Assembly: GCA_026023565.1 (NCBI GenBank)
Contig: JAPETS010000002.1
Coordinates: 930,001 to 994,000 of the forward strand
Length of the DNA: 64,000 nt
DNA from: Cirrosporium novae-zelandiae
Taxonomy: Eukaryota
Direction of reading: 5' to 3'
Under the pieces are notes generated by a model. It saw only the letters and a list, made by a program, of their open reading frames with translations, did not search any database and was not told where the DNA came from. Within the stretch, counting starts at the first letter, position 1, and each line of letters begins with the position of its first letter. Below are positions 2,936-62,823 of the stretch, piece by piece. The position numbers were made by a program, and so were the translations under genes.

Positions 2936-4642
2936 TTAGATATGCTACTAGGAAAACTATTGGTATAGTCATCGTGTCCATTCTGAATACCATTTATCGG
3001 GGGCATATTGGCTGGGGATTACGCGTAGAAGTAATGACCAAATTAGTATCCGAATTCTGAAGTTGAGAGGAAAATAATGAACAAGTTAAACAAATTATAA
3101 TCCTTTTGATTTTGTGCATTCTTAAGGCACAGTATATGAGTGTATGGTATATTGATTTTGAAGGGGGGAAATATGGGCTTATAAGAATAAGCTCTAAGTA
3201 TGAAATGCGTTTGACTTTCGGATTGATCGTGGACAATTATAGATAGGACCGAAACCAATATCCTGATAATAGGGCTATGACGAGAAAATCTTACGAGAAG
3301 CTCAGTAATGTCAGCTGAAAGAGTACATGCCGAGACATCTCAGCCGCGGAGGGCAGTGCACCTTGTCATCTTAAACGCTCGGAGGAATTACTTAGTGTCA
3401 TGTGAAGAAGAATTCGGAGTCAGAATGGAGGTGATAGAGAGTATGAAACCCCGGAAATCCTAAACCATTGTCATCGTAAGTGGAGGGATGTGCTGATGCA
3501 ACTGGTTAAAAGTATGACTAGGTCATAGAACTTAAATCTCTAGTTCTCCTTCTTCAATTTTAAACATCGGAGTCTACGAATCCGATACCCCCCCCTAATC
3601 CCCTACCTATAATCATAGCGGCCTATAAAGCTCGTCTAGTTCTTTATCTTCTCTGGCTCGACTTCCCGCATCCTCTTGATTAGGCTCGGCCTTTATACTT
3701 TGTTTCTATGATTCCTGAGGTATGATAATGGCTTTACGAGGGCGAGTGTGGTTGTGAGTTCGAGCGAGAGCTTAAAGAATCACGAGGAGATAAGACTATT
3801 CGCGGGATAATCTCGTTCATACGAGAATGTTCGTCGATAAACGTTGGATATGGAAGGAAGTGAATTGGCCTTATGCCATTTAGGGTGACAATCGAAAGAA
3901 TAGCACCTATCCTGAAGGTAGTCGAACCTCCACCTCGTGGTTCTCCATTGAGGCTATTTTTTATCCATAGACCGATTGTTGGTTGGAGAAGTTTTGAGAT
4001 GATGGGAGAAATTTCATTTATGTGGTCGATCAATCGATGACGCAGCTATGTTCGTCATAGCTTAGAAGCGGCATATGGACAATAAAATGAATCATCATCA
4101 TTGATGGTGGATATTATGCCAGTTGGATATTTCTGGGACGGGTCAACCCTTATGAGTTTAACTTGCACCGGTAAAACCATGTGAAGAACTTGCTTGTATG
4201 TAAATGGGCCAGACCGTCAATAAAATATGATTTCGTAATATTGCATACTACATAGACAACCCTCCATAGCTAGATGTATCATTCCCATGCCCCAGACAAT
4301 AAGGGAGATTAATGCTCTGATGAGCAGGCCAATAATCCAATTCCGATCAGGAAAAAGGCAGAGGCAAATGACTAGAGCCTTTGAGGAAGAGCAAAATCCA
4401 AGCATAACGCCATGAGATATTGATTCCTTGAAGGTGGTTACTCTTCGCATATCGACTAATTGACACGCCATTGTAAGAGATCGTGGCAACTTAAAGTAGT
4501 GCGGTTTTGTTAGATGGCTTTAATCTTAAGTACTAGTATTTATAGTTAGTGATTCCTCGAAGAGATGGGTGTCATGTGCGCCAAGGACACCAAGGAAATA
4601 TGATCTCGAGTAGGTGAATGAAATAAAAGCAAGACGAGTTGG

Positions 4643-16885: not shown

Positions 16886-17065
16886 ATAAGTGTTTATTTG
16901 TTATGGCTTCATTGCGGTTTATGATATTCTTAACGCGCATACGCATACGCTAGGTACAGTACATATATCAGCTCCAAAGTTCATGGGATAGATATTATAT
17001 GATACCCTTTCACCTCACCTCGTCTCGGACATATCTATAAGAACCCGACCTAGACCACAGGATAG

Positions 17066-17182
17066 CAGCGTTGTCGATAGACCAGACCGACCAAACCGAC
17101 CCCCTTGGTCTGGTCGGTCTGTCAAAATCCGAGGCCCGGTCTATATAGACCGTCTATTTGGTCCAGTTTATCGACAACACTG
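17066..17182. mobile_element. 117-bp non-autonomous hAT-type MITE
   Basis: TIRs CAGCGTTGTCGATAGACCAGACC and (reverse complement) CAGTGTTGTCGATAAACTGGACC, 19/23 identical. Exact 8-bp target-site duplication CAGGATAG at 17058-17065 and 17183-17190. Confidence 0.85.
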
Positions 17183-19473
17183 CAGGATAGGCAGTCACGG
17201 TAAAAAACAACAGTTAGAATCAAATGATAGATCAGATACCAACATAATAATACCCATCTTCACGTGCGAGACACAACCCATCAATCAACCAATATAAATA
17301 ATCCAGCAGATATTCTCAAGACATTGCCCCAGGTTGCCATCTTTAGTGTATGCGTATGCGTGTAGTACTATTACTATATGCACACACACAAACATGTAAT
17401 ATAACCAATTCTCGAACAATTATATCCACCTACTCGAGTGGATTGCTAACTAACTGAGGAAGAAGAGGAAGAAGAGGAGGAGGAAGAGGAAGAGGAGGAG
17501 AGGAGTTTTAATCACAAGGAAAATCAACCCAATAGCAGAACTTCATTCGTTTATTTGTTCATTCTTTTGCACAAGCGTGTTTATTTGGGCGTTTGTCTAG
17601 TGTTTAGTGCTTAGGTGTTTGGCGCACGTCGGAATACAAGTAGCTAACCTATCCAGACTAATTATTATATTTCTTAAAAAGAGACCCCACTATTCGAAAC
17701 CATCACATTTCTCTCTCTTTAATTCACAATTCACAATTCACCCATTATTCATTGAGACAACAACAGCAACGACAACAACAACCACACGATTTATTAAATC
17801 AACCCCTTTCTATTATTATACATATACATATACATTTCCAAATTTCCTCGCCTACTACAACCCCCCCCCCCTCCCAAAAAGGAAGAAGCAAGAAGCAAGA
17901 AGCCCTTGCTCTCTTCTTTAGTCGAGGTCAAGATCAAGCTTGAGATCGAACCCGAGGTCGAGGTTGAGGAGGGGCTGCTTTCTCTCTTTCTCTCTCTCTC
18001 ACTCTCTCCTCAAAGCAAGGCCGTGTACATTGCGGCGAAGGGTTTCGTCTTATTGTACCTGTACATGTACATGAAGTGTGAAGTCTGAGAGTTTGCTTTG
18101 AGAGGAGTGCCCCTCGCCCCCATCCCATCCCATCCGGGGTACCTAGATCTAGATAAGGGTGTAATATTATATTATATAATTCAGCTCCGCTAGTTTTTTA
18201 CCACGGGAGAGAAAAAGTATGGATTTATGCTAATTAACACGAACCCACAACCACATTACTGTTATACACGATCCATGCTCTAGGTCTATAGACAGGAACC
18301 AGGAATTTCGTAACAGGGATTAAAATGTTGCATTGTCTTTAGCATGGCACGGTGCTGACCCCTGAGGGAGTGTTGATTTGGTTGACCTGGTTGATCTGGT
18401 GGACAAGACACCTTCAGTAGTGAGTCATTTTTCTCGAAGTTTACGTTTACGGTTACAATATCTCGAGCTTTGGATATCTGTCTTTCCTTCTTTTTTTTTT
18501 CTGCCGTGCAGTTGCCGGCTAGGGTTGTGGTTGCGGTTGTAATGGATATATCACCCCCCCACCACCCCCTGGCCTCCCCCGCGACCTCACCGTATGAGAT
18601 ATGCAGATAATTATAGGTTTTTTTTCTTTTTGAGATTCCCTTGCTCATGTTCGCTAAGTATAATATAATATAGTTATTCGAAAATTCTATACTCCCTATA
18701 CAGCCCATTAGATGCTTATCTATAGAGATATGTAGGGAGTAAAGTGAAGTGAAGTGAAAGTGGTGATTAATTATTGTGCGCACCATGATGGTGGGAAATA
18801 GGGAAGAGAAGAGAAGAGAAGAGGTAAAGTAGGTAAGGTAAATAAGTAAGTCCATAGATCAATATACTAACTTACTGTTGTTACCTTCTGCCATCTGCCA
18901 TCTACCATCTTCCATCTATTTATATTTTATTTCATTTGTATTATACCGTTTCATTTCGTTTCATTTCGTTTCATTTCGTTCCATCTTGTTCGACTCGGCT
19001 TGGAGGGTATTGGGTATTGGGTATTCGGTTATTTACTTACTATCCAAGATGAATATATATATATATTAAGGTCAGGGGAAACCTAAAATAAAATAAAATA
19101 AGGTAAGTTATAAGCTCTCTCTCTCTCTCTCTCTTTCTGGGGCACTTGTATAAAGAGAGAGAGAGAGAGGGAAAAAGAGACCAAGAGAGGAGGAGGATTT
19201 GTCTGAAGTATTTTCTGTGGGTAGAGATTAGAGATTTGGAATAGGGATAGGGATAGGGATGGGGATGGGGATGGGGTTTTATTGGAATGTGATTTGATAT
19301 GATTTGATATAGTGAAGGTGCGGGTGTGGGTATGGGTATAGGTATAGGTATGGGTATGGGTATGGGTGAGGAGCCCATCCATCCATCGGTTTGCGGGGTT
19401 ATATTTGGGATACGGTAAATGTTTCGTTATGTTTCGTGTGGGTATGGATATATCTTGCTATGCCATACTGTAG

Positions 19474-19506
19474 AATAATAATAATAACAATAATAACAAT
19501 AATAAC

Positions 19507-19595
<89 letters not shown>
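19474..19595. repeat. (AAT)n microsatellite, ~40 units with three AAC interruptions
   Basis: Directly visible. Confidence 0.98.
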
Positions 19596-19597
<2 letters not shown>

Positions 19598-20403
19598 CCA
19601 TCCATATCATCATCGTCTACATATATCACTTCTAGCTTCTTAGGCTATGAATAATAAAACGTAATAAAAAGTAAATGCAGTGGAATAATAATAATATTGT
19701 ATCTCTATCTCGTACTAGAGAATTATATCTTTTCGCAATTATCTGGCGTTATGAGAGTAAGGGAGTTAAGGGGGGGGGGGTTAGGATATTAGGTATTCCA
19801 AATTCAAAGTTCAAATTCAAGTTTAATGGGATTATAGGATCGTGGGAGTAAGAGAGGAAGAGGAGGCAAGGAAGGCAAGGGATTATGGGAGTAAAGGGAC
19901 GGAAAGAGTGAGTGAGTGAGTGAGAGTGAGAGAGGCATGGATACTGAATACTAGATGTTGGATATTTGTAAGATAAAATACCGAGTAGAGTTTTTCGAGG
20001 AAGTGTTTGAAGTGCAGGCGAAGTGATTGATGTATAATGTAGTTCTATAGACCAGACCAGACCAGACCAGACCCGAGAGAACAGACCCGAGAGAAGAAGG
20101 AAGAAGGGTGGGGTCTAATCGGTCTAATCGGCTGTTGGGGCGAAACCGTTGGGCGTTTGTTGAGTATAGTGGTGGGCATAGAAGCATTGAGTGTACTCGA
20201 GTAGAGTGTACTGTAGAGAATATAGAGTGTGGAAGTGTAGAAGACTTTGGCGGATTGGTGGATTAGATTGCTGGGGGGGGAGGGGGGGTTCAAATAGGGT
20301 TGGGTTGTTTGGTTTTGGTTTTGGTTTTGGTTTTGAGGGTTGGAGTATGGAGGAGATGTTAGGTATAGGCATGGTTATCACGTGGTATGCAAGGTACGTG
20401 GGG

Positions 20404-20473
20404 GTATGTATGTATGTATGTATGTATGTATGTATGTATGTATGTATGTATGTATGTATGTATGTATGTATGT
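20404..20473. repeat. (GTAT)17 microsatellite
   Basis: Directly visible. Confidence 0.97.
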
Positions 20474-22219
20474 GGGGATATGGGGTAGGGTATATAGATA
20501 TAGCTTTTCGCCTTCCCTTGTCCTACCCTCTCCCCGCCCCTTTATTACCAGTTAAACCTGTTGAGGTATAATCATATACCATATATCATGTACTGTTACA
20601 TCTTGAGTTTGAGGTCTCGTACGTAATGAAACCTGAACTGGTTACGGTACTCGAGTAGTTAGGTAACGAGGAAAAAAAAAAGGAAAAAAAAAAGAAAACA
20701 CAATCTGTCCTTTTTTTGCTTTTTGGGGAGTGACTAATTTAAGGGGGGGGGGGGAGCTCTAGCATGCAAGAACCCAGGGGTCCCAAGTAAAGTAAAGTAA
20801 AGGAGTCGGAGTGGCCATTAAAATAAATTTTTTTATTAATTCAACCAACGACGGGAAAACTTATCCGTTATTGGATATTTTTGTGACTGGTGAGTTATCT
20901 ATATGTCGTGTTATATATATATATATAATTGGTCTAATCTTTGCTTTGTTTTTCGCCACCTCCAATATTTGGTGGCGAAATATTGAGAGAGAAGGGGGGA
21001 GATGGGGATGTGTTTGAAGTAGCACACCAATGTAACGGGAGGAGAGGCAAAGGCGATGATGATGAGTCAGAAAAGTACAAGTGTGGTCCAGTCAGTCCTA
21101 TTAGGCTATCTTGTCTGGCTTTGATAATAAAAGATTTCTTTTTTTTCAATCAAATCATAACATACATACAACGCTTGCTGTAAAAAAAAGAAAAGAATTT
21201 CTGTCACAAGGTTCGTCAAACCGACTACCTCCATACATTACATGCTTATGAGAATCATACAAGGGTTTCATTCAAAGACTTTCGTTCAGCAGATGACTTA
21301 AATCAGAAAGGGTGGGTAGGCTTGGGTAATTAATAGCAAATCAAGTTAAGACATGCGATACAAACAAGCAACAAGCAACAAGCAACCACACAACCACACA
21401 ACCACAAAGCTCATCAACAAGTCTGAGCACCACCACCACCAGATTGCTGATCCAGATTGCTGCCTGGCTATAAGGAACTATAGGGCGGCCGGCTAGCCTT
21501 GGGGGCTCCTCAACGCGACTAAGGGACGAGGCATTTTCCATCCAACCAAAGTGCCGTGGACGTGGGAATGGGCGTAGGGCGTGAGTATGACTGTACCACC
21601 AGGCGAACAGGCAAACAGAAGAGCCCGATGAGAGCCACAGTCATCGTAACGTATATCAATCAAGTCCATCAGCCCCCGCGGTTGACTGACTTGACTGTGG
21701 ACCCCCCAACCGTAGACAGCATTTTTTGTTTTCTTTATTACTTTTCCAAAATTTCAATCAATCGTGGAATCATAACAGATTGGGAAATCATCCATCGAGG
21801 ATGTATCTGCAAGATGTTTGTTGCATAAGATGGATTTGGGGTGTTCGTGCTGGAAGACTGAACTGAGCCATCGTCGGGGATTGATAACAAGAAAAAAGTT
21901 CGAATAATGGTGATGGCGGTGGTGGAGGGATCAGATCATCCGGTGCTCTCTGCTCCCAAACCCGTCCATGACGCGTGATCAACACGCTCACAATCTTGGC
22001 TGAAGAAGCTTTGACCTTCCCCTGACCAAAAAACAAAGAGCATAACAAGTCCGCCCTCATCTCTTATCATTTCAACTTCAGTATCCAAATATCATTTGGT
22101 CCAATATGCGATTCCTTATTCTTGGGAATCAGGATAATGGCACGATGGTGGGATGGTGGAGAAATCAATGTGAAAGTGCTAATAGTCGTGGGCTCCTCAC
22201 CATCCACCAGCTATACACA

Positions 22220-23097
22220 TCATCTCCTACGTCTCCGTTCTCTCGCCGAGTTCGCAATCACCGTATATGGTTGCGCCACCCTTTCTCTCCTAGCTAGACC
22301 CCCGCCTGGCATCCTTTGAATATTAACTGTAGCTTGGTCTGGTCTACTCATAAATAGGGCCTTGAATGTCGCATCCCCGATTAATTTCTCCTGCCATAAC
22401 CATGTGAAAAGGCCAAAGTCAGGCCTCGCTGTTGCCATCGACACGCCTTCTATCTCATAATGTCGTTTTATGTGATCGAGTTTGGCCTCCCATGCAGCCC
22501 AGCCGTTTCTTGAGTTAAAGGACTCAGTATCACAAAAGGGACAACCGGTGGGACTTGGTGGCATGTGCGTGCGGAAATGCGACAGGATATGCGTTTTCCA
22601 ATCTGACGCGTCGTCAAAGGTGCGGGAACAGTTCAAGAATGGAAAAAGACATTCAAGAGAGTGGCTACGTGAGGGACCAGATGATCGTCGAAGGGTAACA
22701 CCGTCATCTTCAATAGAGAAGACTGAATAACCGTCGAGATAATCTGCATTAGAGGTTCTAGCGGAACTGGAGTAATCGGATGGCGACTCGCTATTCGTAT
22801 GGATAAGAGATGGAAGACCAGAGTTCATGGAGGTATCAACAGTGGTTCTGCTCCGGTTGGTGACAGCAAGAGAGATGGAGATAGGATATCGAACCATGTT
22901 GCTAGGTTTGTGATCGGAAGGTACATCTGGTATGGTTTGAGGGAGAAAAAATGGGTCTTGGGAATGTTGAATATAGTCTTGGAGAGGAGGGGGAATATTT
23001 TGAGAGGAGGGGTTATTGTGGTTCACTAAAAAAAGTGGTTGAAATTTTTCAGCAAGGGAAATTATTCTAAGTGGATGTTTTTTATCGGATACTTACT
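22220..23097 (-). CDS. Fungal C2H2-like zinc-finger protein
   Basis: LECLFPFLNCSRTF....WKTHILSHF and CPFC...F......W..KLDHIKRH motifs; basic C-terminus RERRRRR*. Probable introns at 23096-23026 and ~22894-22848. Confidence 0.75.
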
Positions 23098-26000
23098 GAC
23101 GAATTAACTAATAATAAAGAACGTCCAACCAGGCCTAGCTGTTGGTGGTAGGGGGGGAGGGGGGATTAGGGGGCGTTAGGGGGGGGGGGGGGATGGTTGA
23201 TGCTATCGTGACAACAGGCGGGGGTTATTCTGATTGGTAAGTTTTATTTTAAAAACAGCTATCGGCCTATTCCAGTCGTCACTCCGGTACCTTCAATAAT
23301 CCGTTGTTGTGCATTCATTTCCCTTCATAAGTACGACATCTTTCGTCAGGATTTTATGCTAAAGTCAGAAATGGGGCTCTGCGAGAGATGATGATTGATG
23401 GTCAACATGGTGGTGACCAACCCACCCTTAATCATCTCCAAATGGTCTAAATTATCGAGGACAATACAAATAATGGATGCAAGTATGTGTTCCTGTGACC
23501 CCTCCCAAAAGCATTTCACAGCGAAAAGGACCCCACCATCATCTCAAATCTCACTTCTCTATTTGTTTCCGACTTCACCATCGGCCGCAGTCGACTAAAC
23601 GTCACATCGCTTCCTTCAGCTTAATTATTACTGTGGTACCGTTTCCTAGTTAACTTTTTCTCTGAACCAAGCCAGACCCGCCAATTCCGCCAAACACCCC
23701 ATGACTCCCAAAATCCACCACCAATTGGATTTCTCAACGCATTTCTTTCCCATGGCGCAGACTTCGATCCAGGCCCTAGTGACTACAGAATAGCCACAAT
23801 AGCCGGCTTCATGTCGTGACGGTACGCAGTTGCAATATCTACTAACTACCACGCACGATCATTATGATTATCTCTAGTTTCAAATTTCTATTGAATTTGT
23901 TGATGATTCCATGAGATTTCTTGGTTTTGGTTGTATTCTCATAATCCCAAGGCTTGGCTAGCTATGCATAGCCACCAGAAAATAGTACTACCAACGAAAA
24001 ATACCGTGGGCATTAAAACTAAACCCGTCTGAATAATCAAACAAATCTGGATCTCCAGCAATCTTGTCCTTAATGCTCCGAATTGCATAAATTAGTCCCT
24101 TTGTTATTCCTGTGAACCGAACGACGTCGATTTTGGCGAATAAGGATAGCATTGAAAATATTTTCTCTTGATATACTTTCTTAGCGGTAGCTATCGGCAC
24201 CTAATTTCAAGAGATGACGCTCTAGTAACTATAAGACTTCCCGCATCCTGCTAGTCATCCTTAGCCGTACATTAAACCATAATTTGATATCGCTGCTCCA
24301 ATATAACGTATATCTTGGTCAACACTGAACAAATATTTTCAATCTGCTGATCATTCGCGTCCTGCATGAAACTCGTGTATTTCAGCCAACAACATGCAAA
24401 CAGGGAAGGAGTTTTGGAAGAATACACAGCATCAACGTGGTAGTTTGACTGCCCCTGTCAACTGTAAGCGATTTGTTGCTATCCTTATTTGATAGCCATG
24501 AATTTCTGCCCTACACTTTGACGGGCCGAACCTAACATTCTGTCGGCATGCCGATGGTAGCATGAAGCTCCTGGTACCGAGCTACCCTTATGAAATGGGT
24601 AGCATCAAGGTCATAGCGCTTCTCATCTACCTTTGAGAGGTTTCGTATTCCCTGAGATTAACTCTGCAAGAGTCAATGGATTTTTCTCCTAGCTACAAAC
24701 GTGGTGGATATCTCATCAACGTGGGAATAATCTCAACTATCCATCAACCGTCTGTCGACTATTGCAGGCAGTAATGTGACTTGACACAACAGGCAATAAT
24801 GAGTCTTCTCCCGACTAGAGTTCTGATCAGGCATATATCCTAGGGCAATACACGGAATGATGCATCAATCACTTAACATCGAAATTTTTAATCTGCAGTT
24901 ATGACGAACAAATCATGTAGTTCAAAACTCTTTTCGCATCCACCGGAGATGCATCTATCCTCTCGCCACTCCACCCAAATGGGTTACTAAAGAATTCTTA
25001 GCTTCATTCCTTCAAGCGCTCAATGGTCCGTTCAATTTCTTATCTCCCTAAGCTGCGGCGGGCCACTCGACCTTTTACATCTGGATATTCTCAAACCTAG
25101 CTGGGCTTGCGAGTGATTTGGCGCTAGTATATCGACACGATTTTGAGCTGCTGCCTCGTATACGTTTTATCCGCTAATAACAGCCATTTGTTGCAAGGTC
25201 CTTGTTCTCGGCGTCTTGAATCGGCATGATATTCAATCCTCAAGAATCAGCATTTAGACGTAATAGTGGAAACCCTATCATTCAATTTCAATATTATTAG
25301 GAAATAGGGAGCTACCATCTGTATCACCATGGTAGCAACGTCCGTCCTCATATCTAAAGTTTAAAGCGTGAGGTTTAGTGGTATAGTATAAACAGACACA
25401 GCGCCTTTCAATGCAGATGGCTTGTGGCCGAAACCCGAAACTGTAACCGGACAAGAGTAGTAACTGGCTACTACTTGGATGGAAAACAATCCGATGTTAG
25501 AAGTGTGAATTTAGGTAGGCTAAATTGATTCTTGTTTCCATTTTGGTTGGTAAATGGATGGATGGCATTCTGGAAAGAAATGTAAATTTTGACTGTTTTC
25601 AATTTGACATGTGAATGATACCAAAGTGTTCCGAGTGGCTAGCCAGCCTAAAAGACTACTTACCACTAGGTACACATCAACCTCATTCCTCATTGAACCT
25701 TCAACTTCTGAGCTGAGTCTCTGGTCTTGAATTTTTTATTCGATAAATAATTTGCCGTTTTCATATTTTGGTCATCGGGGTTCCCTATCTACCCAACGCA
25801 AAATGCTTGGCAGCCAGCACATCATTTCTGTCAAGGTATATCGAGTACATCAGCTAGTGAAATAAATATCTAGTTTCATATTGGTTGCTAGAAGAGAATC
25901 GACTTCTCGTATATGAACATCCATGTGGCTGAAGGGAAATTATTCATATATGACTGTGCTTGCTGCGAATACTTGGGTGACAATGGTTTTGCCCAGTGCT

Positions 26001-28294
26001 GATGCTGATTAGCAGTGGATTCTGTTTAGTGATTGGATATGGCTCATACTCACAAGGCACATAGATAGAAAATGTCCTACATTTCATCGCAAGCCATGCC
26101 CACCATGTTGAGTAACTGCCCCTGTTAAAATATGCGATTTTTTACAATCTTTGGTTCGACAACCTCAACATTTCCTCATGCACTCGATTTGCTTCCCTTG
26201 ACCTGGTAACCAAGTAGGGTTCCTATCCAGACGGCCTTTTTACTGCTTAACTGTGACTCTCATTTGCCTGTGAGGAGGGCTTCATTTTTTGATATTGACT
26301 TTTGATATTGACAATAGCTAACGTCACCATTCTCCATTAGCGCTTGTCTCGACCCAATCCTATCCGAGAAAATAGAGATTTCCTTAATAGCAACCCAACT
26401 GTGAATGAACAATGGACAGAAGCTAGGAGCTGGAAGGTTTGACAACAGCTCAACACTCGGATCCTGAACTCTTGTTATGGAGGCCTCTTGGATAGGCCGA
26501 TAACCAGGTGATACGACGACGACAGCCCATCATTAACGAATCCCGAGAAGGAGATATTCGATGAAAACTCGTTCAACCACCTTTTCACCGGATCAGTCAT
26601 GGTTGCTTTATACACGGGTCTCAAAGAGGCTTGGAATATGGTATTTCCTGGTAGTATCATGAACATGGTTGATATCTGTCGAGATGGGACTGCGATGAAA
26701 CGAAGCCATCTCCGAGTGAACCCGATGATAGAAGACCATGTCTGTATTATGTTGGCGTTCAAGCTAATTAGATAGAGTGGGAGAGACTCTTTGCATACAA
26801 GAATATTTCTCCGGGGACATGAAACTATCCAAAACACATACAGACATAAAAAAATGAATTGTCACCAACTATCCAAAAATGGAACACGAACTATTTGGAT
26901 AATTGTGCAGGCCAAGAAGAAGCTAGAAGACCCTTCCAGCAAATCCAAACATACTGCCAGATGTGGAACATGCGTTATAGTTATACCATAACCTAGTAAG
27001 TGCTTTTTATTGTTCTTGTTAAAAGGGACGAAATGCGTGATACCTAAAGTGTGAACAACCCTCTTCTACAGAGCACAGCTCGAGTTCCACCTATGTTGTC
27101 TTCAAGACAATTGTTTCACACTCACACCACGAGAAGTAGTACTGTACTGTACATCAAGCTACAACAATTCGTTCTCGACTAACAAATGAGGACATATCGA
27201 ATCCTCCACAATCCCCTGGGCAGGACCACGCAAAGACAACATGACCGTAAACCTCGACCTGTGGTTCATTCACATGATCGCCAGAGTTTCTAAAACCGAC
27301 AAATCTACTAGAACATGATATTCCTTTAGTACACAGCCAACTACAAGATAGCCCGCTCTACTATAGCAGCACGACGAATTGGCATTATATTTCTATTGGT
27401 AAATAATTCTCGAATTAGGAGATATTAACCAAAAGATCAGGTGGTCGCAGGATCGTCGAACCAAGGTGGGATGGGAGAGGGAATTTCCAACAAAAGCAAT
27501 AGTCCCTTCTCAAGCGCAGCGAGATTTTTACCCCTAACCGAAATCCCCCTACTTAGGCCTAACTAACCCAGTTCCCCTGGCGATCTTAGAAGGAGCCCTC
27601 CCTCTGCCATCTCCGTCTCCGGCGTAGAGAAACAGTAGTTGGAGGGCCTATATACCATCCAGACGGTAGGCAGAAAAAAATATCTCGTTCTTTCCTATCC
27701 TCAAAGGCTGAATTGAAATTCTGCCTAAAGGCCCCTGAACCACCACAGAATACGCGAAGGGCTATGGAGATCTACTGTACTCGGTAGATTTTCGGAAAAG
27801 TATCCGAGTCTCTTGCTCCCATGCCCCCTCTCTCTCTCCTTTTCCACTACTGTACTGTACATGTACTATACAATCACATTCTCTCCTTCTCCTTTCCTTC
27901 TCTCTAACAACATATGTTTCAACATCCATTCAAACAAACCACCCTTCCTAACAAACTTGATTCTTACAATACATCCAGAATGAAAAAAAAAATCTACCAT
28001 CTCACCAATTCTTCCCTTCCCTTCCCCCCCGCCGGAGCCTCCCTTTTGTTTCATTTCAACGACCTACTGTAATCACGACTTTTGGATCTCGATGAGATAC
28101 ATACCTCCTCACGGCTTCCACGGACCACGGTTCCCATTGTCAGATGCCATAAATACCAAATACTAGGTTGGGTTCGATTCCCAAGAGCGTTAATTAGTGA
28201 TTGGTCACACTGGTATCAGTGTTCTTCTCCCACAAACAAAAACAAAAAAAGAAGCCATTCACACCCTCTACCCACCTCACACAGTACTCAAAAT

Positions 28295-28719
28295 CCCCCA
28301 TCGTCATTAATTAACCTCTCAGGCGTTAATTAGGGCTGCCCTCAACCAACTTAAATTACTCCCCCCCCAACGAAGATGCAAATGTATACCATCTTCTTCA
28401 ACTTAAAGCCAGGTAGATAATAATAATATTTATATACCATAAATCATACTGCCACCACAACTATAATTCCCTATTACTTCTCCCATCCCCTAAAAGAAAA
28501 AAACCCCAGACCATAAATTCACACACATAGACTATATACCCTAGCACATATTTATCCCATCCCATTATAAAACCATCCCCCCCCCCCCCCTCCAAAAAAA
28601 TCACCTACCCATCCACCTACCCAAAACCCGAAACCCCCATCGTCATTAATTAGCCTTTTTACCTCTCGGGCGTTAGTTAGTTAGGGCTGCCCTCAACCTC
28701 AACCTCAACCAACTTAAAT
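28295..28719. repeat. Degenerate direct repeat pair (28295-28356 and 28634-28719)
   Basis: Both copies contain CCCCCATCGTCATTAATTA..ACCTCTC.GGCGTTA..TTAGGGCTGCCCTCAACC..AACTTAAAT. Confidence 0.9.
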
Positions 28720-29555
28720 AATGCCCCCCCTTCTCCCCTCGACCCAAAGTCCTAATGAACAACCCAATAATGAAAATACAAACGTATATCAACACTTCTA
28801 CAATTTATTTGTTTATATACCGTAGACCCTACCACCACCACCCATCTCTCATCCCAGCAAACCAAACTTTTATTTTTCTTTCTATTTATATTTACAATCT
28901 ATACAATTTCCTATACCATTCCATCCATCTAGTTCAAAATTAAACCTGAATTTTTTTTTTCTTTTTTTTTTTATCGAATCGAATGGTCGTTTTTGAGTAA
29001 GTTTGGGCTGTTTGTTGATTGGGGGAGAATGGGGGGGGGGAGAGGAGAGAAGAGGGGAGGAGAGGAGATACCACTATTACTACTACTATTTACTATCATC
29101 TGGATTATGAGTTCACATATATACTGTAGACCACCATCCCATCACCATCACTACCTCCACCCCCGAAAAACAAAAGCTCAACCCTATAGAAATCTATAGA
29201 TATAGCCCTCACTGACTAATTAAATAAATAAATACTATACAACCCTACTACCACCACCACCACAACCACAACCACTCACAACCACACTATTACTTATCCC
29301 TCATCCCCCTCTCCTACTAAATTCCATATTATATCATCCTCAACATAACAACAATATACAAATAAGTAAATTAATAACTCAAGTAACCCAGTCAATCACC
29401 TTTTAGATAACCTCAATATTTCATAACCGTTTAACCCCCCCCCCCCTCCCAAAAAAAACCTCTCAACCTTATAAAAAGCCTATAGAAATTTATAAGATAG
29501 ATATATGGCTCTAACTGACTCTAACTGAATTGAATTGAATTTTATATAATCGTAT

Positions 29556-29556
<1 letters not shown>

Positions 29557-29587
<31 letters not shown>
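29557..29587. repeat. (AGT)10 microsatellite
   Basis: Directly visible. Confidence 0.95.
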
Positions 29588-29875
29588 AGCCTACAGCAGA
29601 TATCTTTCCAAAGAAAAAGAATTTCCCATTTTATAGTAGACCTAGTTAGTTAGTCCCCCATTTCCAGTCCTAACTCTTCTTCTCCTTCCTTCCCCCTTCC
29701 TATTTAGCAATCCACTCACTAAAACACCAATTCACCCATCTAACCCACCCACTCACTCCCCACCCCCACCATTATAAACTCATCCCATCCCATCCTATCC
29801 CATCCTCCCAACTTCTATATACTTTGACCAAATGTTATACTCCGTAGACCCCCTTCAAAGGATTTCCCATTCTAG

Positions 29876-46272: not shown

Positions 46273-47043
46273 CTGGAGTAGGGGAATATGGTTGGTTGGA
46301 TTGTTAGTTGACTCGACTTAACTACGGATGGAGTAGGGAGGTGTTTGATGGATGTCGTGTCGTTGTCTATTTGTGAAATGGAGAACATGGGGAGGAGGAG
46401 GGGAGGACATCGAAGAAAATAGATAATAAGGCTTATACGATTTGAACCTCCCCCCCCTTTCTCCTCTAGGGCTAACTAACTAGCCTTACCTTACCTTGTG
46501 TTTAACATAATTACATATTACATATTTCTAAAGGTAGAATGTACATATACTATAACACAGTAGCCATTAGAACAAGCAAGCAATGGAGAATGGAGAATAA
46601 TCATTTGTTGAATCTGTTTATTTTTTTGGGGGGGTGGGATTAATGATTGATAGATAACCTCTCCCTCGTCCAATTCATATTTTTATTTTTGGTTCATCTT
46701 TTTTTTAAGTAAGTTTATCTAGGAGTCATCTATTTGTAGGGGTAGCGGGACGTATGGAATATCGATCGAACCTTTATCTCATCCCATGAGTAAGGGTAGG
46801 GATGCATGGATGTAAATGGGATTGATGCTCTCTATGATTATATATATGTTCGACAGCCAATTTTAGAGGTAATGGTTCTAGCTAGATTTGAGCTTCTAAA
46901 ATGGCATTTAGCATTCATCGTAAAGGTGCTCCTCCTTATATCCATAATCTTCGATGGCCGTTTTAAAACGCCATAACCCTCATATCCCTGCTTTAAACGC
47001 CTGTAAATAATATCTCATCATTGCATCGCTTGGAGGCTCCGTT

Positions 47044-48159
47044 TCAGAGGTCCATGCCCATTAGATAGCTTTCCAGGATACGCATAAACTTGGCAACAAA
47101 TGCTTCCAGGTGAAATATAGCCTTATTTCCAAGCTTGATGCGGTTTTCATAAAATGCAGTCCACTTGACGACTTCGGCCTTGAGGGCATCGTCGATCTTT
47201 TGGATGAGCTGCAAGGAAAGCGTTTTGAGAATCGTGGTGGGTGGGATGCAATGCGTCAGCAGATCATATAGCTTTGCTCGGACTTTGAGGATCTGGGCTG
47301 GTGTGTGTTCTTCCATGATGTCGTTGGCGATTTGGGCGATGAGGGCTTCCCAGTCGGCTACGGGGATGGTCGTTTTGTCCGTCACTGACTCGTTTTGTGC
47401 GTGTACCGCTTCAAACATCAATAGTGCCCTTCGCAGGTTGCGCTTGCTTTCCTTTGCTATTCGTTGGTTGAGCCCCTTTGCTTCGTCCCATCCTTCTTTT
47501 CTACCCGCTTCCGCCAGCACGTCGCAGATTTCAGCTTCTGTGGGTGCGGGGACACGCACGAGCAGTGTTCGAGAGCGGATAGGTGCGATGATGTTGCTGG
47601 TGCTATTGGCTAGCAGTATTAACCTCAGATTTGGACTATATTTCTCCATTGTTCTCCTCAGCGCTGCTTGTGCATCTCTGGTCAGATGATCCGCCTCATT
47701 AATCACAACAACCTTGAACCTCTGCCTTGCATTCATATCCACCTGTTGCGTCTGCGCTACTTCCTTCAGCAGCTCCTGTACCACCACACGGTCATAATTC
47801 CCGACGTCAGATGGGGTGATCTCGAGGTGGTAGACGGAAGCAACAATGTTGAATTCAAGTTTGCGGTTGGTGGTTGTTTGGAAGACACGGGCGTCAATTT
47901 TGATTTTTTCCACACCGGGACCGTAGAGCTCTTTCAGTGTAGCAACTATGCGGGTTTTCTTGCCTGCGCCTGACGGTCCATACACGAGAAGGTGGGGGAA
48001 ATCACCACTTTGAGCCTATAGTCAATTGATTAGAAGGTCTCTCGAGGTGCATTTGATATGGGTCCTTCTTACTAGTGATTTCAATCTTGCGGATAGGTCT
48101 GGATGGTAACTTAGGGCCTCAAGTGACCGTGGTCGTAGCTTATCAACAAGAAGGGCCAT
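47044..48159 (-). CDS. RFC5: Replication factor C subunit 5 (yeast nomenclature)
   Basis: MALLVDKLRPRSL..., intron ~48072-48017, AQSGDFPHLLVYGPSGAGKKTR, VVINEAD, PIRSR, IFHLEAFVAKFM. Confidence 0.95.
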
Positions 48160-48237
48160 GGTTTTGGGTATAATAAATTTTAGCGGTTTCCTGCAAAATT
48201 GATGTTGAAGTCGGTTGGGATGGAAAAAGATGGTGAT

Positions 48238-48260
48238 ACGCGTTTTCTAGCTTCACGCGT
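48238..48260. promoter_or_regulatory. Two MCB (ACGCGT) elements upstream of RFC5
   Basis: ACGCGT at 48238-48243 and 48255-48260, 80-100 bp upstream of the RFC5 ATG. Confidence 0.65.
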
Positions 48261-48515
48261 TCTTTCAATTAAGGGTCTGTGGTCCGTGCCCACGCTGCAT
48301 GTTACCAAATTGACACGGATAGGCGGATAGGCGGTTGGCGGTTGAATAGATAGGCCAATAGAACGGTTACGTTAAGAGCATCGCGCTTATAATTTAGCGA
48401 GGGCTTATATAAACCCCGCCGTTCCCGCTTCGTAACTTATGAATGAATATTTTGCATCTCGCTAATGAGCATACAACTACCCCTCATAAATCACTATAGC
48501 AGGCAAGTTTTTAAC

Positions 48516-48692
48516 GGCGGGCGGGCCATTGGCCTACCCGCCACGGACAGCATCCGGCTTTGAGGTCGGGGGTTCAACCCCCACAGGGTGCTAGGAACTT
48601 AGGTCGAAAATCCCCTTGAGCGTGAGGGGGTTTTCATAGGATCCTCCCCCATACCGTAGCGTAGTTTGTATGGGGGGGCATCTGAACTTTTT
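48516..48692 (+). ncRNA. Candidate structured non-coding RNA, probably Pol III-transcribed, family unidentified
   Basis: Consecutive GC-rich helices with G-U pairs that work only on the + strand, B-box GGTTCAACCCC (48571-48581), A-box-like TGGCCTA, an AT-rich element ~30 nt upstream and TTTTT at 48688-48692. Confidence 0.6.
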
Positions 48693-49691
48693 GCCATTTT
48701 CAGTGTGTGTATTTTTTTTTAATTCGAATAGCGTCGGCGACGTCGAGTTGGTTATCTTCACCAAAATCAACCGCCCCTAACTACATCAAGTGATTCTAAG
48801 GACTGAAATGGCCAACTCTAGGTAGGTATGGTGTAAATAATGGGATACAGCATTAGAATCTATCATAGCGTGTGAATCGTAGCATGATCGGGCTTCATGT
48901 CTTTAACTCCACTTAGGAAATACTGAAAAGATATCTAAATAACCTATGACATAGCTTCCCAGTCTTTGACATGAGCTTCACCCACCCTTACAATCGTGTA
49001 TTCGCGGACTTGGTATAGTTAGGTATAATTGGACTGAGAGTAAAGTGAAATGACGACAAGGCAGGCGAAGCCTCCCATCTTGGGTTATAGTTATCACCGT
49101 AGTATTACAAGGTCTCCCGTCAGCATTTTCATTTTTATCTCTCATCAAGGTAGCCAAGAGCGAAGACAGCGTAACCCCGAAACCTACAAATAAATTCCAT
49201 GGTCAAAATGGGGAACTACTAATAACTCTATTATACTACCTTTGCATAGTCAATTGAGCATGTATTAGAGGAATAATATAAACTTCTTTTTAGCTCCTTT
49301 TACCAGAATTCTTGCCTTTGATTCCGTCTTCTGCTCACATCTCTTATGTCATTTGATATGGTTATATTAGACTTTATGTGCTAAGGTACTTTCTAGTTCG
49401 TTGATAATACTGCTAGGATCCATGTCGCAGAAGCCTTCCGCATACGTCGTGGAGCGCTACAATGGATCTCTTCAAACCAATTATGAGTTTGTGGGGTTGG
49501 GTCCCCCCACTAAGATAAGGAAGCAGCATCGGCGGATATCAACGCTCGTCATTAAAGGGTGTACCGATGCAGATCAAATTATTATGACTCAAGGGTGGAG
49601 CTGAAACTGCTTATATTGTTGACTTCTTCCGCTGAGCTATTGTAATTTCTTTGTAAATTCAACAGGGTTCTAGAGTCGGCAAATTATTAAC

Positions 49692-50773
49692 ATGACAGCA
49701 TCTAAGAAAGCCAATGTCTTGCTTTTTGGAGGTGGGGCTGTTGGTACGATTGGAGCTGTCAATCTCGAGGCAGGAGGATTAGCAGAAGTCACAATTGTTC
49801 TGCGATCAAATTTTAAGGCCGTTAATGAGAATGGGTATTTAATTGAATCTTGCGATCACGGCGATCTCAAGGGCTGGAAACCAACAAAAGGTATGATTTT
49901 TCCAACTTTCAACAAGCAAATTTCCTTTCCGATGCAGGCAACTAATTTCGCGCAGTTATCAATGGGGTCCCCGATGTAGCTGCTGAGTCCCTATTACCAT
50001 ATGACTATATATTCGTCTGCAGTAAAAATTGTTCAGATATACCTCCGTCCATTGCTACCATCATTGCTCCTGCTGTTACTCCCTCCCACACGGTCATAGT
50101 TCTTAACCAGAATGGCCTCAACATTGAAAAACCGATTCAGGCAGCCTTTCCGTCAAACATCTGCCTCTCTGGCATTTCCCTGATCGACGCCCATGAAAAA
50201 GACCCAGGGCACATTCGGCATGAATATGCAGACGACCTTCTCATCGGTGCATTTCACAATCCAAATCTCAAATTGGAGGATGAGGAAAAGGCTGCGAAGA
50301 ATTTTGTAGAATTATATGGTGCAGCTGGAAAAACGCAAGTCGCTTTCGTCGACGACGTACCCTTCAGGCGATGGCGCAAATTGGTGTACAATGCTTCGTG
50401 GAATCCCATCTGCGCTATACTTGAAACTGACACTGGCACTTTAAAAACTGCAGCTGGTGTCAATATTGTTGAAGGCCTTGTCAAGCCTGTAATGTGGGAA
50501 ATAATAGCGGCTGCAAAGGCTCACGGCTATGATCTCCCAGATGATGTCGTTGACTTCTTCATCAACATTGATCCCCCAGAGCTCAAGCTGAAGCCGAGTA
50601 TGCAAGTGGATAAGGAAAAAGGAAACTTCCTGGAATTTGAGAATTTGGTTGGGGAGCCATTGAGAGCTGGAACAGCCAAAGGTGTCGACATGCCCAAACT
50701 GGCAATCATATACGAATTGTGTAAATTACTGCAGTGGAAGACGAAAGCAGCGAAAGGTCTGATCGAGGGATGA
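49692..50773 (+). CDS. 2-dehydropantoate 2-reductase (ApbA/PanE family)
   Basis: LLFGGGAVG Rossmann motif, VLRSNF, intron ~49891-49955, LNQNGLNIE, RWRKLVYNASWNPICAI, KPSMQVD, EFENLVGEP. Confidence 0.9.
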
Positions 50774-61723: not shown

Positions 61724-62245
61724 AATTTCGAAAGGGATTGTTTTCCTAACTAGTTGTATACGAATAGCCTAGTACCAATAAGAAGAACGTCGATAGCAAT
61801 ATATTATGCTGTACATGTCAAACCTACTTAAATATCCCCTGACCTTAAAATAACAAATAATTCATCACTAGAGTAACTACGCCTACTGTAACAATGACTA
61901 CGACATTTTATATAACCCCCTAAATTCAAACCTCCAAAGCAAAACACCAAATAAACAGTCCAACCACCATGTGCTCCCCCCCCCCCCCCCCCCAAAAAAG
62001 TGAAGGAATAAGCAGTAAATATATTAATTCCACGAGAAAAAGGTTAGATACTAGCATTTATATATATTCCCTCTCTCTCAACTATATATCCATGAACCCC
62101 CCCACCCCCCCTCCCTAAAAAAAAACACTTCCCAAAATAACCAAAACAACCAAGAAAAAGAAAAAAAATTGTAAGTGAAGAAGTTTGAACTTGACAAAGA
62201 AGAAGAAGAAATTGGAGTGAAGGTTAGGTTAGGTTAAGGAGTTGA

Positions 62246-62280
62246 GTGAATGAGTGAGTGAGTGAGTGAGTGAGTGAGTG
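62246..62280. repeat. (GAGT)n-type microsatellite within a low-complexity intergenic region
   Basis: Directly visible. Confidence 0.9.
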
Positions 62281-62823
62281 GTGAATTTTATATATATTTT
62301 ATATATGGGGGAAGCGGATGCCCCTATCTCTCGGAGAGAAAGAGGAAGGGGGGGGGGGAGGTTGTATATATACAGTAGTGTAGCATTGAGGGGTGGGTAG
62401 TAGTGTGATGGCATTTTCTGTATAGGTGGGTGAGGGAGGGGGAAGAACTCGAAGAGGCATTTGTATTTATATTCATCTTATTTATTTACAAAAGAGAGAG
62501 AGCAAGATATCCAGATATATGTATATAATGTACCACGCCGACGTCTAGGATATGGGCTTCTTTATTTTTTTTATTTTCTTATTTTCTTATTTTCTTATAA
62601 AAGGCATAAGACACAGATGTATCTAGGCAGGGGGGTATGATATATGCCTTAGCGTGGCATGGAATGATGGAGGGAGGGGTGTATTTATATTTATTTATTT
62701 ACACTAGATATATATATCAACGCATCATCCCAGCGATTAATATTCCCACTTAAATCATCCCAATACCACCCCCCCCAAAAAAACTCCCCCCTTACAAACC
62801 CAAGTTCCTTACCATCCATCACC

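Follow-up and report, generated by a model that had tools for sequence, protein, structure and literature searches.

The closest known counterparts to the locus described here come from several fungi. In Aspergillus fumigatus, the AfuSINE2 elements, which are related to tRNAs and resemble short interspersed nuclear elements (SINEs), measure 140-493 bp, carry degenerate A and B boxes, and have heads that adopt no cloverleaf (PMC5063351). Southern blots showed three of the elements probed to be single copy, transcription was seen for five of eight, their heads were assigned to parent tRNAs, and target-site duplications of 4-14 bp were reported (PMC5063351). In Saccharomyces cerevisiae, the RNA polymerase III (Pol III) genes SNR52 and RPR1 have their A box and B box within a 5' leader that is removed after transcription, and the A-to-B box spacing of yeast Pol III genes ranges from 31 to 93 nt (PMC5356446). 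ZOD1, iYGR033c/ETC9, RNA170 and the ETC sites of the same yeast are tRNA-gene relics or orphan B-box loci between Pol II genes (PMC5356446, PMC3395662), and loci of the ZOD1/ETC type are weakly or not transcribed and can act via TFIIIC binding alone (PMC5356446). In the dicistronic tRNA-5S genes of Yarrowia lipolytica, the tRNA supplies the Pol III promoter (PMC2566860). In the present study, we compare them with a 177-nt element at positions 48516-48692 (plus strand) of a 64,000-nt stretch of Cirrosporium novae-zelandiae DNA (GenBank assembly GCA_026023565.1, contig JAPETS010000002.1, positions 930,001 to 994,000), which we call the window and in which all positions are numbered.

To our knowledge, the fungal Pol III transcriptome beyond tRNA, 5S, U6, RNase P RNA, signal recognition particle (SRP) RNA and a few yeast oddities (SNR52, RNA170 and ZOD1) is very small, and we know of essentially no exploration of it outside model yeasts and Aspergillus. 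We tentatively favour the reading that the element is a lineage-specific, single-copy, tRNA-related Pol III type-2 unit that would give a compact RNA of ~175 nt. A narrow literature search on Pol III noncoding RNAs of filamentous fungi and Pezizomycotina found no prior description of such an RNA. If this reading is true, a stable, structured Pol III RNA on a tRNA minihelix would be a new member of a small set, and the locus would be a simple system for the question of how decayed tRNA genes become RNA genes or chromatin boundaries beside a cell-cycle-regulated promoter; as a mere relic or palindrome cluster, the element would be ordinary. We present the finding as a bounded candidate RNA gene rather than a discovery.

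Fold and Pol III-type layout of the element

The plus strand of the element folds with a minimum free energy (MFE) of -85.8 kcal/mol, and none of 200 dinucleotide shuffles folded as well (z -3.78). When corrected for GC content, this fold ranked first of 4256 sliding windows on both strands of the 64-kb window, and none of 2610 control windows upstream of RFC5, the gene next to the element, in 45 other fungal loci matched it (minimum z -2.81 versus -3.59 for the element; 45 of 80 loci were used, the rest being duplicates or having less than 1500 nt upstream). The unusual folding ends at T5, the run of five T residues that follows the last helix, with z values of +0.79 on the plus strand and -0.93 on the minus strand for 48686-48830. 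Unbroken hairpins of at least 10 bp (at most two G.U and at least five G-C pairs) occur at about five sites in 64 kb among the matches listed, and two of them sit 9 nt apart in the element, beside three further helices. The structure is exceptional for the window and in no curated RNA family.

Folding recovered all four hairpin units drawn in a first-pass annotation made from the letters alone, namely hairpin A, the minihelix B, and hairpins C and D, each in the place assigned to it, and the T5 run and the CATAAAT motif named there are present in the sequence too (Table 1). Of the five helices described in that annotation, four pair with a probability of at least 0.9. According to the partition function, the pairing probability within the minihelix was 0.87-0.93 for the 7-bp stem AGCAUCC/GGGUGCU, 0.79-0.93 for the enclosed 4-bp mini-hairpin, and 0.99 for GGGGG-UUCAA-CCCCC. 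The closure of hairpins C and D into a three-way junction by TTAGGT/ATCTGA, which the same annotation had proposed, did not hold: the two segments are complementary, yet they pair with a probability of 0.01, and the closure costs 4.5 kcal/mol (-81.3 versus -85.8 kcal/mol), the MFE structure preferring the GGAU/AUCU extension of hairpin D over UUAGGU/AUCUGA.

Table 1. Positions of the structural units and short motifs in and next to the element
Feature	Position	Strand	Basis and remarks
CATAAAT, TATA-like AT-rich motif	48485..48491	+	read from the letters; -31 to -25 relative to the proposed start; putative TATA role
Hairpin A, GGCGGG-C-GGGCC / GGCCU-A-CCCGCC, proposed 5' terminal hairpin	48516..48542	+	6+5 bp, one C.A mismatch, one G.U; pairing probability 0.96-1.0
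Degenerate, gapped A-box-like motif (GGGCCATTGGC)	48523..48533	+	+8 to +18 of the proposed RNA; spotted by eye
tRNA-like minihelix (B): 7-bp acceptor-like stem around a 4-bp mini-hairpin and a T-arm-like 5-bp hairpin	48549..48592	+	pairing probabilities 0.79-0.99
B-box consensus GGTTCAACCCC	48571..48581	+	exact match to GGTTCRANNCC, within the T-arm-like hairpin; at +56
Hairpin C, 12 bp, loop GAGCGU	48606..48635	+	pairing probability 0.94-1.0
Hairpin D, 11-bp core (48644-48678) plus 4-bp GGAU/AUCU extension; 13-nt loop with AGCGU	48639..48683	+	pairing probability 0.69-1.0 (core), 0.63-0.75 (extension)
T5 run, proposed Pol III terminator	48688..48692	+	read from the letters; T4 at 48697-48700 and T9 at 48712-48720 beyond
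Adjacent structure: imperfect ~80-nt hairpin (48503 to 48424) and small hairpin (48420 to 48396), loop with TATATAAA	48396..48503	-	folding of both strands

A Pol III-type layout does exist on the plus strand, and three independent features, namely the B box, the T5 run at the end of the structure and the more stable fold, all belong to this strand. The A-box-like motif precedes the B box by ~48 nt from start to start, a distance that fits within the yeast range given above; of the A-box consensus TRGCNNAGTGG, the element has a gapped, degenerate look-alike. When compared by eye with the A-box region of the tRNA-Arg gene at one of the other fungal RFC5 loci (L055), GGGCCATTGGC is alike save for one deletion and two changes. 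The T5 run lies directly 3' of the last helix and is followed by the T4 and T9 runs; the longest T run inside the element is T4.

Regarding known RNA families, none of 4227 Rfam families reached its gathering score in the whole window, and lax Rfam scans, which covered both strands of a 601-nt and of a 91-nt segment, returned unrelated families only (E 0.049-8.1). ARAGORN predicted no tRNA gene in the window, nor any in 48300-48800 in its standard, mitochondrial and tmRNA modes; at -ps80 alone it drew a 92-nt 'tRNA-?' with a mismatched acceptor. These results bear out the earlier statement that the element matches neither tRNA, 5S, small nuclear RNAs (snRNAs) and SRP RNA nor RNase P/MRP RNA. 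The mascRNA-menRNA family (RF01684) scored 12.0 bits on the minihelix (E 3.8) and did not reach its gathering score of 42.5; this match is unspecific, the unrelated site at 28159-28191 scoring 14.4 bits, and so weak a score simply restates that an acceptor-like stem surrounds a T-arm-like hairpin.

Other families were considered and set aside. For an H/ACA small nucleolar RNA (snoRNA), the AUAGGA between hairpins C and D fits ANANNA, but an ACA placed 3 nt before the end and internal loops in the stems are both absent by eye. For a C/D snoRNA, CUGA is present but by eye a C box is absent, and no snoRNA family scored within the element in the lax Rfam scans. U3 snoRNA, suggested by an 11-nt match (UUCAUAGGAUC) to the yeast U3 5' region, was rejected by eye and did not appear in the Rfam scans, telomerase RNA was rejected by eye with nothing found beyond the 7-nt CCCTAAC at ~48774, and Sm-class snRNA, SRP RNA and RNase P/MRP RNA were likewise rejected by eye, none being listed in the Rfam scans. 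An snR67-like C/D match on the minus strand at 48679-48765, comprising a UGAAGA C-like box, CUGA and a 5-bp terminal stem, was taken as probable noise (E = 1; 16 bits versus a gathering score of 55).

Copy number, relatives and genomic setting

The element is apparently single copy. In the one sequencing run that contains it, which is probably its source, one of 157,048 contigs fits 46800-50000 at a likeness of at least 80%, a count in which repeats can collapse and copies less than 80% alike would escape. Two other runs of the same study gave short pieces of less than 90% likeness in the coding part of RFC5 and one 38-nt piece at 48742-48779. Repeat, blastn, nhmmer and covariance-model searches found no second copy in the 64-kb window, and an exact 29-nt pattern of the minihelix had no match in collections of genome contigs and viral contigs. 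The longest word common to both flanks, the low-complexity TTTTTAA (48508 and 48716), was not above background as a target-site duplication: shuffles did as well in 142 of 2000 cases, and genomic controls in 474 of 3000 (16%). With one fitting contig, no further copy in the window and no convincing target-site duplication, the alternative of a tRNA-derived SINE head, which had been raised in the first-pass annotation, finds no support in its usual multi-copy sense.

Eighty fungal RFC5 loci were retrieved from metagenome contigs with the RFC5 protein (RFC5 identity 57-83%). None of the 80 carries the other genes that neighbour the element in the window, which marks these fungi as distant relatives without common gene order. 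A covariance model built from the element as a single sequence found only the element itself below E 0.001, the best matches in the loci having E 3.2; the model also gave an overlapping minus-strand artefact at 48387-48542 (E 0.003). At this sampling depth of 80 distant loci, the element is lineage-specific. Two of the loci, L055 and L056, carry a tRNA-Arg(ACG) gene that is divergent and ~630 nt upstream of the main RFC5 exon (3301-3372 and 198-269, respectively, on the minus strand of the loci), which is the same relative position as that of the element, without sequence similarity to the element head. In five other RFC5 loci, a tRNA-Lys(UUU) gene lies 2.3-2.6 kb upstream.

The element lies inside a 1.5-kb intergenic region flanked by divergent genes. 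The gene on the minus strand has two exons (main exon 47044-48015, ATG at ~48162) and encodes an RFC small subunit, the product of which matches the Pfam family RFC_C ('Replication factor C subunit 3, C-terminal domain'; E 9e-33); judging from its sequence, it is the small subunit named Rfc5 in yeast. On the plus strand, a gene of the ketopantoate-reductase family starts at ~49674, and a SART-1 family gene and a GTPase-like gene lie farther out. Two ACGCGT boxes (48238-48243 and 48255-48260), which we take from yeast biology to be MluI cell-cycle boxes, are ~80-100 nt from the RFC5 ATG, so that the promoter of RFC5 would be situated on the gene side of the element; since the promoter would then be downstream of the structure, a structured 5' untranslated region of RFC5 is unlikely. 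CCAAT motifs occur at 48362-48366 (plus strand) and, on the RFC5 strand, at 48527-48531 within hairpin A. MluI-type boxes and CCAAT motifs are expected for a replication gene.

Elsewhere in the window, a second exact B box (GGTTCGATTCC) at 28171 is part of a perfect T-arm-like hairpin (28159-28191), which has a 7-nt loop on a 5-bp stem and is accompanied by a partial acceptor-like stem. No tRNA was found around this hairpin, which may be a solo tRNA-fragment relic. Kinship between this site and the element was rejected, as the score of their local alignment (39) stayed below the highest score among shuffles (44) and the site was absent from the blastn and nhmmer matches. A long palindrome at 17055-17185 (GTTGTCGATA ... 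TATCGACAAC) surrounds an 11-bp GC-rich hairpin and ranks third among the folds of the window, counted on both strands; it has the appearance of a fold-back or of an insertion resembling a miniature inverted-repeat transposable element. The window also contains homopolymer C/G tracts of 10-18 nt, often followed by A-runs (17857-29777, 61975-62782), and long (AAT)n and (GTAT)n microsatellites (19474-19602; 20404-20477).

Proposed transcript and rival explanations

The steps that we infer for a Pol III unit are as follows. TFIIIC would bind the B box in the T-arm-like hairpin and the degenerate A box at ~+8, TFIIIB would occupy the AT-rich stretch around -30 (CATAAAT), and Pol III would initiate near G48516 and terminate at T5, immediately 3' of the last helix, with a fallback in the T4 and T9 runs. 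The resulting RNA would consist of a 5' terminal hairpin, the acceptor/T-arm minihelix, two long hairpins both showing AGCGU, and an oligo-U tail. Since the minihelix has the shape recognised by RNase P and tRNase Z, cleavage is plausible, and a further step may be the cutting of the transcript into a leader, a ~45-nt tRNA-like piece and a ~95-nt two-hairpin RNA. In its most far-reaching form, the proposal would be that of a new lineage-restricted Pol III noncoding RNA in which the acceptor and T-arm minihelix serves both as the internal promoter and as a mark for RNase P and tRNase Z, freeing a ~95-nt two-hairpin RNA that presents AGCGU in both loops to a dimeric or repeated partner and is maybe paired with a divergent minus-strand 80-nt hairpin RNA; we regard this form as distinctly doubtful.

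A number of observations weigh against a Pol III unit on the plus strand. Regarding the promoter, GGTTCRANNCC occurs at chance frequency (two matches in 64 kb versus 0.88 expected, with two reached by 17 of 100 shuffles), the second site at 28171 being in unstructured DNA; the strict A box TRGCNNANNGG has no match in the element and eight in the window; and the T-arm-like loop of the element has 5 nt, not 7. Of the two promoter signals read by the first annotator, the B box stands as an exact match of a motif at chance frequency, and the A-box-like motif is a gapped, degenerate look-alike. For comparison, the B-box consensus has 17 matches in 507 kb of RFC5 loci, seven of which are in true tRNAs. 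The B-box motif is not significant alone, but it is unlikely that it should fall on the top-ranked fold and on the strand that folds more stably: the chance of a B box hitting this 177-nt fold is ~0.6% for either strand (2 x 177/64000, our own arithmetic).

Descent from a tRNA also finds no support in the sequence. The Rfam tRNA model RF00005 gave no hit at E values up to 10 in the 91-nt lax scan, and alignments of the element head with three fungal tRNAs, all from other species (tRNA-Arg of L055, tRNA-Lys of L018 and L074), were no better than those of shuffles, 202, 335 and 302 of 1000 of which reached the respective scores. Descent from tRNA-Arg or tRNA-Lys was rejected on this ground. The term 'tRNA-like subdomain' applies to the shape, an acceptor-like stem enclosing a T-arm-like hairpin; in sequence, the head is not measurably tRNA-like. 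Conservation points in the same direction: a homologue of the element was not found in the 80 RFC5 loci (blastn at word size 7 gave a best match of 14 nt, E 1.1, and nhmmer gave nothing), so that the proposed nhmmer comparison of the RFC5-upstream region yielded no counterpart among these distant fungi, and no comparably structured segment lies upstream of RFC5 in the 45 loci folded.

The assignment of the strand is a further point of weakness. Both strands of the element fold unusually well (z -3.78 on the plus strand and -3.39 on the minus strand), with MFE values of -85.8 and -72.0 kcal/mol, respectively. The plus-strand MFE structure contains nine G.U pairs beside two 1x1 mismatches (one C.A, one C.C), and repeat-induced point mutation (CpA to TpA) was ruled out as the source of the G.U pairs, with U in a UpA context in one of the nine. 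C.A juxtapositions read by eye at the ends of hairpins A and C make the G.U asymmetry suggestive rather than decisive. The claim that many G-U pairs fix the plus strand holds in part: there are nine such pairs and the plus-strand fold is more stable by 13.8 kcal/mol, but the minus strand is an outlier too. Moreover, the segment 48396-48503, which abuts the 5' end of the element, folds on the minus strand only, and 48380-48700 as a whole folds better on the minus strand (z -5.99, -126.5 kcal/mol) than on the plus strand (z -2.69). The 136 nt upstream of the element (48380-48515) reach -46.5 kcal/mol on the minus strand (z -4.49) versus -22.0 kcal/mol on the plus strand (z -0.15), in a minus-strand fold with 33 Watson-Crick and nine G.U pairs and no 1x1 mismatch. 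We read this neighbour as a divergent structure in its own right or else as a sign that the plus-strand assignment is insecure. In addition, TATATAAA, a strong and canonical TATA sequence at 48406-48413, ~105 nt upstream of the element, could by its sequence drive Pol II transcription across it.

The last of these points concerns the pentamer AGCGT, which is common to the loops of hairpins C and D. It occurs on the plus strand at 48619, 48658, 48730, 48867 and 49168, mostly as TAGCGT and all within 550 nt. Nowhere else in the window do three copies stand within 130 nt of each other (totals of 35 on the plus and 24 on the minus strand). Three of these five copies (48730, 48867 and 49168) lie past T5. 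Since the cluster extends beyond T5, the loop motif appears to be part of something larger, either a DNA-level cluster of sites or a longer plus-strand RNA. Of the idea of a stand-alone Pol III noncoding RNA divergent from RFC5, the layout on the plus strand, the absence of a known family and the RFC5 neighbour are borne out; the chance frequency of the B box, the folding of both strands, the minus-strand fold of 48396-48503 and the AGCGT cluster past T5 tell against it.

Among the rival explanations, we take most seriously, although we consider it unlikely, a DNA-level palindrome cluster in the shared promoter region of RFC5 and the ketopantoate-reductase-like gene, in which the GC-rich inverted repeats derive from an old insertion or fold-back or represent paired factor sites, and the B box and T5 are coincidental. 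DNA palindromes would make both strands outliers, as was found, and the G-runs and C-runs that underlie the stems are frequent in the window (repeat families D3 and D4). By eye, the loop of hairpin A holds ATTGG (CCAAT on the RFC5 strand) and CCCCT/AGGGG form the arms of hairpin C, which we presume to be CCAAT and stress-element motifs. The chance frequency of the B box, the AGCGT motifs running beyond the element, the second long palindrome of the window at 17055-17185 and the failure to find the element at this position in the other fungal RFC5 loci sampled also speak for such a cluster. However, perfect stems of 11-12 bp, in a fold with nine G.U pairs and hardly any other mismatch (one C.A, one C.C), fit pairing at the RNA level better, the plus strand is more stable by 13.8 kcal/mol, and the B box, a T5 at the exact end of the structure and the more stable fold agree on one strand; pairs of factor sites normally do not yield 12-bp palindromes that include their flanks.

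We think it rather improbable that the structure is part of a longer or different transcript, such as a plus-strand Pol II RNA that runs from TATATAAA past T5, or a minus-strand RNA that includes the 48396-48503 hairpin; under both versions, the 177 nt would be no gene of their own. The canonical TATA sequence ~105 nt upstream and the plus-strand AGCGT copies past T5 suit the former, but DNA downstream of T5 is not unusually structured, and the ACGCGT boxes, read in the light of yeast biology, would put the RFC5 promoter downstream of the structure. The latter gains from the minus-strand values of 48380-48700 and from the folding of 48380-48515 on that strand only, at the price of 13.8 kcal/mol lost from the hairpins of the element. 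For either transcript, no Sm site and no C/D or H/ACA boxes are suitably placed (by eye and Rfam).

It would be quite surprising if good hairpins and short motifs had merely coincided here without biological meaning. B boxes and T5 runs are common, being short, and the other two signals, A-box-like and TATA-like, are weak; conservation was not seen in the loci sampled, nor were extra copies found, and among the many windows scanned a top fold with one motif will sometimes occur; chance does not readily account for a fold that ranks first of 4256 in the window and lies beyond all 2610 control windows, or for two of the about five long hairpin sites listed for 64 kb standing 9 nt apart beside three helices. 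That the element is a diverged member of a known family missed by covariance models (snRNA, a fragment of RNase P/MRP RNA, an SRP Alu-like RNA or a snoRNA) is highly improbable, for although Rfam covers under-sampled fungal lineages imperfectly and the ANANNA-like AUAGGA and the 11-nt U3 string could be cited, the lax scans of 601 and 91 nt gave unrelated families only, ACA box, C box, Sm site and P4-type long-range pairing are absent, and the stems are by eye without pseudouridylation pockets.

Comparison with described systems

Considering the Pol III unit that we tentatively favour, a tRNA-shaped module inside a longer primary transcript is a feature that the proposed RNA would share with mascRNA/MEN-beta (RF01684) and with the tRNA-5S genes of Yarrowia. 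A module of this kind can serve as a cutting mark for RNase P and tRNase Z that separates RNAs. The module of the element is without D and anticodon arms, unlike a full tRNA, and scores 12 bits against the 42.5 required for RF01684.

The ZOD1/ETC-type loci resemble the element in their intergenic place, and a true tRNA-Arg gene is present at the same relative position in L055 and L056. These relics are short and not conspicuously structured, unlike the element, for which descent from a tRNA is not demonstrable; the ETC sites, moreover, are described by an extended B-box consensus, whereas the B box of the element was scored on GGTTCRANNCC. With SNR52 and RPR1, the element would have in common a promoter like that of tRNA genes in its 5' part and, 3' of it, a structured RNA that is unrelated and ends in a T-run terminator. 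Its downstream part differs from theirs, being without C/D boxes or an RNase P RNA core, and no homology links them.

The likeness to AfuSINE2 is one of description. Parent tRNAs and target-site duplications are reported there, whereas here no parent was found among the three tRNAs compared and TTTTTAA is at background. The two nevertheless agree in size class (177 versus 140-493), in a degenerate A box (here an A-box-like motif) combined with a better B box, in a head that is not a cloverleaf, in a non-tRNA body after that head, in very low copy number, and in a gene-rich location. With or without a cellular role gained later, the element is by this analogy best seen as having the origin of a retroposon-like or decayed tRNA-related element, similar to the low- and single-copy members of AfuSINE2.

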